A stretch of DNA of 64,000 nt from contig CAXXNO010000012.1 in the NCBI GenBank assembly GCA_963663235.2, positions 384,001 to 448,000 of the forward strand. Reading direction: 5' to 3'. How positions within the stretch are numbered: the stretch's first letter is position 1; every line of letters begins with the position of its first letter. Positions 26,996-55,666 of this stretch are shown piece by piece. The notes under the pieces are model-generated. The model did not search any database. It saw only the letters and a list, made by a program, of their open reading frames with translations, and was not told the DNA's origin. The position numbers and the translations under genes were made by a program. The DNA comes from Dehalococcoidia bacterium. GTDB taxonomy: Bacteria > Chloroflexota > Dehalococcoidia > Bin125.

Positions 26996-27300
26996 GAAAT
27001 GAAAACCGCGCCCAACCCACGAAGGGGCGGAGCGCGGCCGCGGTGCCACCCTTCTTTCCCTCCCAAAGGCGGAAGGACACTCATGGCAGGGACGGCGGTC
27101 AATCCCTTCGCAAGGGACGGAGCTCAATCCCCTCGGCCTTGATAACGGAGCCGTACCGGCTGCGCCTACTGCTCCCTGCGGAGGTTCGGGCAGCGACTCC
27201 CGGGCCCATTCCCCGCCCGCGCAACCGCCGGTCTCTCAGCTATGGCCGGCTCTCTGAAGGTTCGCTTGAGCGGGTACTCTTCCCGTTCACAGTCGATCGG
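26996..27300 (-). promoter_or_regulatory. Trp-specific T-box riboswitch (transcriptional)
   Basis: AGAGA (27255-27251) and GCTGAGA (27240-27234) stem I boxes; GAA-TGG specifier (TGG at 27208-27206); CCGTTA F-box; AAGGGTGGCACCGCG T-box (27053-27039); CCGCGC..GCGCGG-TTTTCATTT terminator. Confidence 0.93.
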
Positions 27301-33796: not shown

Positions 33797-33873
33797 GCCC
33801 CCGTAGCTCAACCGGACAGAGCAGCGGCTTTCTAATCCGCAGGTTGCAGGTTCGAGTCCTGCCGGGGGCGCCA
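33797..33873 (+). tRNA. tRNA-Arg (anticodon TCT)
   Basis: GCCCCCG/CGGGGGC acceptor stem, TAGCTCA D arm, TTTCTAA anticodon loop, GGTTCGAGTCC T arm, encoded CCA. Confidence 0.96.
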
Positions 33874-52508: not shown

Positions 52509-53418
52509 TGGCGCCCTCCTCCCCAGAGCCGCCGCGCCGCACCTCCACGCTGCCGAGCGACTCGAACACCCGCACCAATGCCTGTGTGCCCTCGTCGCCG
52601 GCGCCCTCCGCGTCAAGCGAGAGGAATAGCTGATGCGCCAGAGCCGTTCCGGGCAACGGGAGCCCCAGTGCGTCCGCCGCAGCCAGGGCGAGACGCAGAT
52701 CCTTCTGCTGGAGCTTGACCGTGAATCCCGGGGCGAAATCGCGGTCGAGTACACGCGGTGCGAGGTTGCTTAGCATCCACGAGCCCGCCGCCCCGGAACT
52801 CACGGCTTCCAGCATCTTCGCCGGGTCGACTCCGGACTTCTGTGCCAGCACCAAGCATTCACTCATCGCCAAGAGGTGAATCGCGCCGGCCACCTGATTG
52901 CACAGCTTGACGGACTGTCCCGCCCCGACCGGGCCGACGTGCACGATCGTCTTGCCCATCGCCTCAAGAATCGGGCGGCAGCGCTCCACCACGGCCGCCT
53001 CGCCGCCGACCATGATCGCTAGGGTGCCGGTTTTGGCGCCGCCTTCGCCGCCAGACACCGGCGCGTCCAGCACCGCCACGCCCCTCTCTGCGAGGCGATT
53101 CGCCAGGCGGCGCGTCACCGCAGGGCTGATGGTGCTCATGTCGATGAACACGTCTCCAGCCCCAAGTCCCTCGGCGGCGGGGTCCGGCCCAAACAGCACC
53201 TGCTCAACGTCCGGAGAGTCGGTCACCATCGTGATGAGCACATCGCTGGCTTCGGCGACGGCGCACGGCCCGGCGGCCGCAAGGGCCCCGGCGTCGACGG
53301 CTGCATCGACGCCCGGGCGGCTGCGGTTCCAGACGGCTACCTGGTAGCCGGCGCGCAGCAAGTTCGCCGCCATCGGCCGACCCATGATGCCAAGGCCTAT
53401 GAAGCCGATCCGCTCCAT
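52501..53418 (-). CDS. NAD-dependent beta-hydroxyacid dehydrogenase (2-hydroxy-3-oxopropionate reductase/3-HIBADH family)
   Basis: IGFIGLGIMG, DMSTISP, LDAPVSGG, VKLCNQ, FAPGF...QKDL. Confidence 0.92.
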   Translation of the reverse strand: MERIGFIGLGIMGRPMAANLLRAGYQVAVWNRSRPGVDAAVDAGALAAAGPCAVAEASDVLITMVTDSPDVEQVLFGPDPAAEGLGAGDVFIDMSTISPAVTRRLANRLAERGVAVLDAPVSGGEGGAKTGTLAIMVGGEAAVVERCRPILEAMGKTIVHVGPVGAGQSVKLCNQVAGAIHLLAMSECLVLAQKSGVDPAKMLEAVSSGAAGSWMLSNLAPRVLDRDFAPGFTVKLQQKDLRLALAAADALGLPLPGTALAHQLFLSLDAEGAGDEGTQALVRVFESLGSVEVRRGGSGEEGANG

Positions 53419-53560
53419 CCATACCCCCCCACATCCGGCCCGTAGAGGACTACGATGGCCGCGAATCGATCGCGTGGCAAGGCGCCATCCCAACCCAGCG
53501 TCCAGGCGCAAGAATGGAGTGCGGCCGCGACGAGCGGTAGCCGATGAGAGAAAGCGAATC

Positions 53561-53788
53561 GTGACGAATCTGCCGACAGATCCGACGGAAGCGCCGACGC
53601 GCGGCGAGCGATTCCGCGACGAACTCAAGAACATTCCCAAAGCCATCTGGTTCTTGATCTCGCTGGTGCTCTACGGCGTTGGGCTCGCACTTTCGGTCGC
53701 AGGGCGGGCGCTGATCACGCTGAGCAGATGGGGTCCAGACGAGACCGCTGCGGCCGCGCCGTATACCTCACCCGAGTCCGAGCGCTGA
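53561..53788 (+). CDS. Small membrane protein
   Basis: 75 aa with one long hydrophobic helix; purine-rich GAGAG upstream of GTG. Confidence 0.55.
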   Translation: MTNLPTDPTEAPTRGERFRDELKNIPKAIWFLISLVLYGVGLALSVAGRALITLSRWGPDETAAAAPYTSPESER

Positions 53789-53925
53789 GTCGGGCTACGC
53801 TGACTTCTGCCTGTAACCACTATGTAAAATACGCCGGGCGAGAGCAGGGCGGAAAGCCCGCGTCCGCACGAGCGGCTCCAGATGGTCTATAGTTAGGTCT
53901 CGTTGAACAATTGAATAGCGAATGG

Positions 53926-54038
53926 GCCGAATCCCTCTACCCAGAGGGAGCGGGGGACCCGATTTTCGGGGTGAATGGGGCGAAAACGCCCCTAGGCGCA
54001 CTCCTTCGCGCCGAACCCGACAGCTAACCTCGTAGGCG
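53926..54038 (+). ncRNA. c-di-AMP riboswitch aptamer (ydaO/yuaA)
   Basis: GCCGAATCC...GGGGGACCC...GGGGTGAAT...CCGAACCCGACAGCTAACCTCGTAGGCG matches the ydaO consensus; TATAGT -10 at 53888-53893. Confidence 0.92.
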
Positions 54039-54064
54039 ACTGAAGGGGAATTCGGATCTTCAGT

Positions 54065-54095
54065 TGCCGACCCTACCCAGCGCGTCGGCATTTTT
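54065..54095 (+). terminator. Riboswitch expression-platform terminator
   Basis: TGCCGAC...GTCGGCA stem followed by TTTTT. Confidence 0.75.
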
Positions 54096-54212
54096 ATGTC
54101 CGTGCCCGGTAGCGGTGGGCCCATCCAACAACGCGGGAATCCGTCGGCTGCTCTCGCAGCGGTCGGCGGCCCAAAAAGGGACAGGGCTCTCGCTCTCCCT
54201 GTCCGCCTCCTG

Positions 54213-54245
54213 ACCAACCCGGGTGCGCTTTGCACCCGGGTTGGT
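54213..54245. terminator. Strong 14-bp hairpin, probably a bidirectional terminator
   Basis: ACCAACCCGGGTGC-GCTTT-GCACCCGGGTTGGT, abutting the stop of the convergent gene. Confidence 0.7.
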
Positions 54246-54731
54246 TCATTTCCGAGGCTCCTTCGCCGCCAGCGTCTCGGCCCGGCGCGCCCAGGCTTCG
54301 ATCTGGCGCTGGCCCGTCGCGCGCAAGCGAACGATCCGGAACACGGCGCGGGCGAGCAGCATGACGAGTGCGGGCCCGGTAAATGTATACGCGTCGTGAA
54401 GCTCGCAGCCAGCCGCCACCGGACGCACGATCCAGGAGTGGCGGCCGGTCACGAAGAGGTAGCGCGCCTCCCACGTGAGACGCTCACCTTCGATCCGGTC
54501 CAGAATCGTAAGCCGGAAGCGTGGGACGAACGGGCCCCGCCGAACCCGCTCCTCCCAGAGAGAACCTGGGACTGCGCCGCCACCCTGTTCGTCTGCCGAC
54601 GGACGATCCAACCGTCGCACCGAGACGACATGGGGGTACCACTCCGGCCAGCGTGGCAGATCCATGAGTACGGCCCACGCCGCTGGCGCCGGAGCGTAGC
54701 AGGAAGTCACGTGTCGAATGTCGATTCGCAT
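54246..54731 (-). CDS. SRPBCC/polyketide cyclase family protein
   Basis: APAPAAWAVLMDLPRWPEWYP, LTWE, H.W.V.P; ATG 54731 after GGAG. Confidence 0.75.
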   Translation of the reverse strand: MRIDIRHVTSCYAPAPAAWAVLMDLPRWPEWYPHVVSVRRLDRPSADEQGGGAVPGSLWEERVRRGPFVPRFRLTILDRIEGERLTWEARYLFVTGRHSWIVRPVAAGCELHDAYTFTGPALVMLLARAVFRIVRLRATGQRQIEAWARRAETLAAKEPRK

Positions 54732-54823
54732 CGGCGCTCCACGCGACGATAGGACCATCGCCGGTCGATGCAAGCGAATACACGCCAATAGACGCATCGA
54801 CGGCTCCGGCTCATACTCCGCCC

Positions 54824-55666
54824 ATGCGACCCGATCCCCTCGCCGCGTTCCCGGCGCGTTCCGCATCCGCAGTGCCCGCCGTGACCGGCGCACAAATGCG
54901 CGAGGTCGATCGGCTGGCGATGCAGGACGCGGGCCTCTCTCTGCCACAGATGATGGAGAGCGCGGGGCGCGCGTTGGCGTCGCTGGTTCGCCACTATCTC
55001 ATCGACGCCTCCACGACCGCGGAGAGCAACGTGGCCGGCGACACCGCCGACTCGGGCGCTGCCCCGCCAGCCGGGCCCGTCTTGGTCCTCGCTGGCAGAG
55101 GAGGCAATGGCGGCGGCGCTCTGGCGGCAGCGCGTCACCTGCGCAACTGGGGCTATGCGGTCCAAATCACGCTCAGCGCGCCGCCGGGCAACCTGGACGA
55201 AGCCGCGGCCGGCCAACTGCACATCCTGCATAAGGACGGGTTGCGCGCCCTCTGGCCTGCCTCACCGGAATTTGACGATCGCTTCCCCCGAGAGCTGGAG
55301 ACCGCCGCCGTGGTGGTGGACGGCCTGGTGGGCTACAGCCTGCGCGGATCGTTGGAGGGCGATGTCGCCCTCCTGGTGGAGGCGGTGCTCGACCGCGCGC
55401 CGCCCGTCGTGACGTCCCTGGACATCCCCAGCGGCTTCGACGCGACCACCGGCGCCGTCTCAGCCACGGGCATCGTGGCGACGGCCACACTCACCCTGGC
55501 GCTGCCCAAGTCGGGCCTGTTCAAAAGCGACGCCAGCGCGGCCGGCGGTGAACTCCTGCTGGCCGATATCGGCATCCCGAATTACATCTACGAGCGCCTG
55601 GGGATCGAGGGAGTGCGGGGTATCTTCGCCGAGGGACCGATTGTGCGGCTGCACTGGACCTACTAG
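54824..55666 (+). CDS. nnrE: Stand-alone NAD(P)HX epimerase (YjeF-N)
   Basis: QMREVDR, MMESAGR, GRGGNGGG, DGLVGY, SLDIPSG, TLTLALPK, LADIGIP. Confidence 0.85.
   Translation: MRPDPLAAFPARSASAVPAVTGAQMREVDRLAMQDAGLSLPQMMESAGRALASLVRHYLIDASTTAESNVAGDTADSGAAPPAGPVLVLAGRGGNGGGALAAARHLRNWGYAVQITLSAPPGNLDEAAAGQLHILHKDGLRALWPASPEFDDRFPRELETAAVVVDGLVGYSLRGSLEGDVALLVEAVLDRAPPVVTSLDIPSGFDATTGAVSATGIVATATLTLALPKSGLFKSDASAAGGELLLADIGIPNYIYERLGIEGVRGIFAEGPIVRLHWTY

Follow-up and report, generated by a model that had tools for sequence, protein, structure and literature searches.

The window is a 64,000-nt stretch of DNA from contig C12 of the 2.75-Mb genome of a Dehalococcoidia bacterium, and the unit described here lies on its forward strand. 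A -10-like hexamer, TATAGT (53888-53893), taken as the promoter of the unit, is followed by a c-di-AMP riboswitch aptamer (RF00379, 53915-54053), which cmscan aligns over the full-length model (positions 1-134 of 134) with 101.7 bits against a gathering score of 38 (E 5e-23). The expression platform is terminator 1 (54065-54097), a 7-bp stem (54065-54071/54084-54090) followed by UUUUUAU (54091-54097). It is overlapped by an antiterminator helix (54035-54068), in which the 3′ strand of aptamer helix P1 and its tail (54035-54046) pair with 54057-54068. A variable spacer (54098-54130) leads into the 3′ domain, which opens with an unpaired 5′ motif (54131-54140; consensus RYGNGAGU, here ACGCGGGAAU; alignment columns 1-10). 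The minimum free energy (MFE) fold then gives hairpin A (54141-54169), of 12 bp in this genome; hairpin B (54179-54204), with an 8-bp stem (GGACAGGG/CCCUGUCC) and a 10-nt loop (CUCUCGCUCU); an unpaired, anti-Shine-Dalgarno-like linker, GCCUCCU (54205-54211); and terminator 2 (54212-54253), placed at the 3′ end of the RNA, with a 15-bp stem (54212-54246; 14 Watson-Crick pairs) and the tail UCAUUUC. The next gene, convergent on the reverse strand, belongs to the Polyketide_cyc2/SRPBCC family of Pfam (54246-54731).

A first-pass annotation made from the sequence alone had already marked the hexamer at 53888, a ydaO aptamer at 53926-54038, a terminator at 54065-54095, and a perfect 14-bp second hairpin with a convergent gene behind it. 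All of its feature coordinates hold on re-inspection of the sequence: the hexamer is confirmed, the RF00379 match confirms the aptamer in the wider extent given above, and the stem of the second hairpin counts 15 pairs. A simple consensus scanner for promoters and terminators returned 0 sites between 53300 and 55000, because the 12-nt loop of terminator 1 and the weak U-tract of terminator 2 fall outside its rules.

The promoter elements recur in relatives. Of the 34 loci of relatives with a YGAATA box, 30 have a TAnnnT hexamer at a fixed offset of -17/-18 from it; the offset is -24 in the window's genome and -22 in the three loci of genus g5. Many relatives also have a TTGGCA/GTGACA-like -35 element ~17 nt further upstream of the hexamer.

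The genome encodes a diadenylate cyclase (DAC) domain (145.9 bits) and has just two RF00379 matches, that of the unit included. The other (C12:82267-82417, reverse strand; 84.4 bits) lies ahead of an ORF (at least 479 aa) that contains a CxxxCxxC motif and matches Radical_SAM weakly, below the cut-off. We take this ORF to be KamA-like, that is, similar to lysine 2,3-aminomutase, an identity that would fit β-lysine-type osmolyte synthesis. Just upstream of the unit lies a 75-aa ORF (53561-53788, forward strand) with one hydrophobic stretch and no Pfam match, which other genera do not conserve at this position. Elsewhere in the window, the Rfam scan returned a T-box leader (27020-27299, reverse strand; 97.3 bits, gathering score 93) and a tRNA gene (33797-33870, forward strand).

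Expression platform

When 54035-54098 is folded, the 12-bp antiterminator forms (-20.8 kcal/mol) and terminator 1 is absent; when 54035-54049 is left out, terminator 1 forms (-11.9 kcal/mol). In these predicted folds the antiterminator and terminator 1 are mutually exclusive, with the platform competing with the P1 helix of the aptamer and its tail. As modelled, this two-fold arrangement is the usual layout of an OFF switch.

The platform differs between genera. A hairpin of the terminator-1 type with a U-run directly follows the aptamer in 18 of 37 loci and in 7 of 10 genera (6/7 loci in g10, 5/6 in g8, 3/3 in g5, 1/1 each in g1, g4 and g6, and 1/3 in g2). No U-tract terminator 1 was found in g7 (0/12), g3 (0/2) or g9 (0/1), which together account for 15 of the 37 loci, and termination gating therefore cannot be general. 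The g7 platform consists of near-invariant blocks, invariant within the genus, which by predicted pairing permit two exclusive helices: the 3′ strand of aptamer P1 and its tail may pair with CUCC..CGGUUCGCC, or else GUUCGC may form a helix with GCGAAC, beside the 5′ motif of the 3′ domain.

Parts of the stretch are present in five metatranscriptome runs of two studies. Near-identical RNA-library contigs from four runs, compared with 53300-54900, cover 53925-54199, 53923-54122, 54000-54203 and 53922-54082; three of the four bridge terminator 1 and two extend into hairpin B. Contigs from two studies link the aptamer to the downstream domain in this way, as sequences that show neither strand nor ends, may hold DNA and do not prove transcription. 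No RNA-library contig falls on the flanks (53300-53920 and 54218-54900), where missing cover is no evidence.

The 3′ domain and its distribution

The 120-nt 3′ domain (54131-54250) folds at -69.8 kcal/mol with z = -5.98, and 0 of 200 shuffled sequences are as stable; the longer stretch 54054-54250 has a folding z of -5.71. A BLAST search of 53880-54260 against 40 relatives gave matches in 23 of 24 same-family genomes. For several genera the alignment breaks into two parts, one over the aptamer and the other a 60-nt segment of hairpin B and the linker (85-90% identity), and the spacer in between is unalignable from genus to genus. R1, a covariance model of the 3′ domain alone (113 positions, 26 pairs), matches 53 of 65 family genomes and all 10 genera; 51 of the matched genomes have a single copy, G003 two and G010 three. 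Two of the 12 genomes missed, G011 and G018, do carry the domain, and R1 matches their loci once extracted. The order contains just this one family, and an order-level search covers the same set. In a class-level sample, one of 144 genomes of other families gave an R1 match (G165, locus L079), a weak one (27.5 bits) at a locus without an aptamer, which we took as false.

All 33 family loci fetched with R1 have an aptamer 165-235 nt upstream of the core, 30 of them recognized by motif and 3 more by cmscan. A scan for the core motif, with one genome per species, gave 23 matches. All 8 of those titled Chloroflexota or Dehalococcoidia have RF00379 and 0 of 8 others tested do; the remaining 7, outside the aptamer check, are titled actinomycetes, a Casimicrobiaceae MAG and a haloarchaeon. 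By the R1 and motif-scan distributions, the domain is therefore restricted to a single lineage of Chloroflexota, and no instance of it lacking the aptamer was seen. The two units of G003 lie at C1:64648-64998 and 1560176-1560524, and the three of G010 lie on three contigs of a fragmented MAG with 5% contamination.

Covariation was assessed on 37 matches (35 distinct), re-aligned with the covariance model since MAFFT alone mis-aligns hairpin A; the alignment is thus fitted to the model and leans towards it. Paired cells amount to 93.9%, against 75.6% in column shuffles, with the observed value reached by 0 of 500, and the covariation score is 0.498 against 0.171. Compensatory changes, with both sides of a pair altered, affect 18 of the 26 pairs in this model-fitted alignment: 6/6 in hairpin A, 4/8 in hairpin B and 8/12 of the modelled pairs of terminator 2. 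When the 3′ partners are slid by 1-3 columns, pairing falls to 31-64%.

Two further checks of the structure are not biased to the model. From 20 sequences aligned with MAFFT alone, RNAalifold recovers hairpin B and terminator 2, and 5 of the 13 pairs are compensated. Folded one at a time, 34 of the 35 distinct sequences form three hairpins, one upstream, one that has TCGCTC in the loop and one of the terminator; this count is register-free, since scoring against the exact register of the model undercounts hairpin A, in which the register shifts. A strict stem-plus-U-run test for terminator 2 is passed by 23 of the 37 loci. These results bear out the fold first proposed for the segment, with two hairpins, a single-stranded CCUCC and a terminator.

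In the loop of hairpin B, TCGCTC is invariant in 20 of 20 MAFFT-aligned sequences; the loop measures 10-12 nt and varies by 1-2 nt between genera. Hairpin A keeps the position of its stem, and its loop ranges from ~4 nt to more than 20 nt with no conserved sequence. The first-pass annotation had GCUCUCGC at the tips of both hairpins, which is true of the window's genome; across genera, loop B alone is conserved. The linker is CCUCCUG in most genera; most g7 sequences have CUUCCUG there.

The loops of the two hairpins are related differently in g7. There the loop of hairpin A holds GAGCGA in 10 of 12 loci (GAACGA in L071, L072 and L062 of g9), and GAGCGA can pair at every position with the invariant UCGCUC of loop B; a loop-loop contact is therefore possible in that genus. 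In the window's genome, unlike g7, the two loops have CUCUCGC in common. A search of the whole genome for hairpins whose loop contains TCGCTC returned 496 matches and was too loose to use.

The 3′ domain is matched by none of the Rfam families. Rfam searches at permissive E over 53800-54300 and 54090-54262 returned nothing beyond the aptamer. The best non-aptamer match, over 54131-54246, is to the Streptomyces sRNA Scr4115 (RF02829); we rejected membership of this family, as the match reaches 23 bits (E 0.35) where the gathering score is 58, and its alignment takes in only a generic hairpin and the terminator and skips hairpin B.

Possible functions of the unit

The first-pass annotation had proposed that the riboswitch gates a structured RNA and not a protein gene. 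This is strongly supported by conservation throughout the family, by covariation, by the lack of a conserved ORF and by the variability of the neighbours (the last two described below), and we find the interpretation as a whole partly supported. On the reading that we favour, with somewhat better than even confidence, the locus is a stand-alone non-coding unit of ~350 nt that yields a c-di-AMP-gated, riboswitch-containing sRNA acting in trans, most likely by base pairing. More broadly, c-di-AMP probably controls the production of a regulatory small RNA here.

The promoter (-10 at 53888) would drive transcription of the c-di-AMP aptamer. With c-di-AMP bound, the aptamer would hold the 3′ strand of P1 and its tail, terminator 1 would form, and a short aptamer RNA of ~190 nt would be the only product. 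At low c-di-AMP, the P1 3′ strand and tail would pair with 54057-54068 and block terminator 1, and transcription would run into the conserved 120-nt domain and end at terminator 2. The 3′ domain would then expose two single-stranded, C/U-rich elements, namely the invariant UCGCUC in the loop of hairpin B and the GCCUCCU linker. From this architecture we infer action in trans, most likely by pairing with purine-rich ribosome-binding regions of mRNAs; base pairing is favoured because the C/U-rich loop and the anti-Shine-Dalgarno-like linker sit just before the terminator. One c-di-AMP sensor would thereby control unlinked genes.

Candidate targets were sought by scanning 11,696 start-codon windows, from a crude gene call, with loop and linker seeds. 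The best match of loop B in its own genome is an 11-nt perfect complement at the ribosome-binding site of an 86-aa gene (C4:197640-197921, forward strand, L080), which we take to be CsrA-like and which comes after a gene that we take to be CheB-like. It was rejected as a target, as csrA was detected in just 6 of 65 family genomes and the site is missing from all three upstream regions inspected among the five other csrA loci. Two GAGCGAGA sites and a CAGGAGG Shine-Dalgarno sequence occur in the leader at C4:503842-503920 (reverse strand, L087/L088) of a Tat-signal binding protein, presumably of the family-5 peptide type. This leader was also rejected, its orthologs being found in genus g5 only and not being complementary; the g5 orthologous leaders (L089 and L090) have CUCGCUC / GGUUCUCGCUC instead, with the same polarity as loop B. 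The top matches of the linker seed were uninformative. Across five g7 genomes a perfect 10-nt complement has 35 matches, against 21 for a control pattern, and the 30 loci fetched from them gave no orthologous perfect-complement sites except the five sRNA genes themselves. No conserved complementary mRNA target was found in the own-genome, g5-leader and g7 scans. Complementarity alone is in any case weak evidence, as any C/U-rich loop matches purine-rich ribosome-binding sites. Hfq was not found in the window's genome, which is 92% complete.

The main rival to base pairing, which we consider unlikely, is a protein decoy: the full-length RNA made at low c-di-AMP would titrate an RNA-binding protein through hairpin B with its constant loop, perhaps together with hairpin A. 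Six invariant loop nucleotides on a covarying stem are typical of a protein or tertiary contact, and the lack of a conserved complementary mRNA site points the same way. So does the g5 leader that carries GGUUCUCGCUC in the same sense, although this is a single observation, and no candidate protein is known. ANTAR substrates have two hairpins with hexaloops, whereas here loop B has 10-12 nt and loop A varies in both length and sequence. The arrangement as a whole, with a 5′ riboswitch, an internal terminator and a 3′ dual hairpin, matches that of EutX/Rli55 as presented in the available text of PMC8237595.

A variant of trans action, to which we give a rather lower probability, makes the aptamer the allosteric domain of a trans-acting riboregulator that, in this order of Chloroflexota, would stand at the centre of a c-di-AMP regulon. 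In g7, g3 and g9, the ligand would choose between the conserved alternative helices adjoining the 3′ domain and would not control RNA synthesis. A second messenger would then switch the active conformation of an sRNA post-transcriptionally in these three genera.

Slightly less probable again is a purely cis-acting or structural role, in which the 3′ domain would be a stability, processing or folding module, with the aptamer for example buffering c-di-AMP, or the whole would be a long leader of the YjeF_N gene. This gene is next and co-oriented in g10 and g4, and in the window's genome it lies on the same strand (54824-55666; Pfam) beyond the inserted SRPBCC gene; the g7 platform, with conserved alternative pairings and no terminator, could also be read in this way. 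Against a leader stands the strong terminator 2 in between. YjeF_N has, moreover, a -10-like hexamer 6 nt before its ATG (CATACT here, GATACT in g10; by eye), which suggests a leaderless promoter of its own, and the start in the window's genome has no Shine-Dalgarno sequence (54801-54826, by eye); the YjeF_N mRNA may thus be leaderless, as its upstream sequence suggests. Downstream neighbours differ from genus to genus, and the unit persists independently of them. A convergent gene comes next in at least 16 loci of g7, g8 and g9; it ends in ...EDNKEAA.AFLEKR.P.F.GR, presumably an enoyl-CoA hydratase-like gene. Nor would a c-di-AMP buffer need an invariant loop and an anti-Shine-Dalgarno-like linker.

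A small protein as the regulated product is very improbable. The candidate, already raised in the first-pass annotation, is a 49-aa ORF with a TTG start (54064-54213, forward strand) in the ORF list, which ends just before terminator 2. No conserved ORF was found in the three frames of the 3′ region over 37 loci. A qualifying ORF (at least 30 aa, starting after the aptamer and ending no more than 80 nt after the core) occurs in the frame of the 49-aa ORF in just 9 of the 37, and in the other frames in 6 and 5. Most g7 loci have in that frame a stop 48 nt upstream and no start; the length of loop B changes by 1-2 nt from genus to genus, and the TGA is missing in several genera.

As improbable are three further proposals of the same annotation, a relic of a deleted gene, an antisense RNA to the SRPBCC gene and a 6S-like rod. 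In their favour are the lack of a same-strand gene behind the unit and a rod pairing that this single sequence permits. Against them, all 10 of 10 genera conserve the domain, with the compensatory changes described above, which contradicts loss of the regulated gene; the RNA ends at the stop codon of the SRPBCC gene, a neighbour in two genera only (the window's genome and one g2 genome); no 6S family matches at E up to 10; and the rod would break the covarying helix of terminator 2 and take its 5′ partner from the non-conserved spacer, covariation supporting three separate hairpins instead.

The favoured reading, a c-di-AMP-gated sRNA acting in trans, would have several consequences. In the available portions of the literature, c-di-AMP riboswitches figure as cis-acting switches of K+, osmolyte and cell-wall genes; the present unit would be the first case that we have found of c-di-AMP controlling a regulatory sRNA. 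It would extend the riboswitch-containing sRNA design, hitherto represented by B12 and EutX/Rli55, to a second-messenger ligand and to the Chloroflexota. With only two c-di-AMP riboswitches in the genome, an sRNA output could be the means by which unlinked genes receive the signal. The unit also offers a clean test system, with one 350-nt template and 35 distinct natural variants for structure work.

Comparison with known systems

Full-text literature searches, with subscription journals and supplements outside them, returned no c-di-AMP riboswitch gating an sRNA, and the lists of ydaO representatives in the supplements of the original riboswitch papers could include such orphan cases; none appears in the available portions of PMC7266159, PMC8079986 and PMC12820528. 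The c-di-AMP riboswitches described in those portions of PMC7266159 and PMC8079986 precede protein genes, namely K+/osmolyte transporters and cell-wall hydrolases. Like the ydaO/yuaA leaders (B. subtilis kimA and ktrA), the unit has a full, high-scoring aptamer and, in the window's genome, a predicted terminator/antiterminator platform of the OFF type. Unlike them, it has no ORF behind, and in that place stands a conserved, structured non-coding domain with its own terminator. It does not resemble a cis leader of the RF00379 type, as there is no conserved ORF, the next gene is convergent and the neighbours vary.

Among riboswitches that act in trans, SreA and SreB of Listeria are SAM riboswitches that act on prfA (PMC13501541, available text). 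They share with the present RNA, for which trans action would be the corresponding property, the use of a riboswitch transcript as a regulator. In SreA/SreB it is the terminated riboswitch that pairs with the target, while remaining at the head of its own operon, whereas the present RNA has a separate 3′ domain and no operon.

The closest parallel is with EutX of Enterococcus faecalis and Rli55 of Listeria monocytogenes, in which, according to the available text of PMC8237595 and PMC13501541, an AdoCbl riboswitch allows the full-length sRNA to be made only in the absence of B12, and the 3′ dual hairpin sequesters the ANTAR regulator EutV (PMC8237595). The likeness, as far as these portions describe it, extends to the 5′ aptamer, the internal terminator, with a ligand dependence that is predicted here, and the conserved non-coding 3′ part with two hairpins and its own terminator. 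The differences are the ligand, c-di-AMP and not B12, the phylum, Chloroflexota, the lack of a known partner protein and a trans function that is putative here. What is new, on present sequence evidence, is the conserved joining of a c-di-AMP sensor and an undescribed 3′ domain, of presumed regulatory function, on the known design of a riboswitch-containing sRNA.
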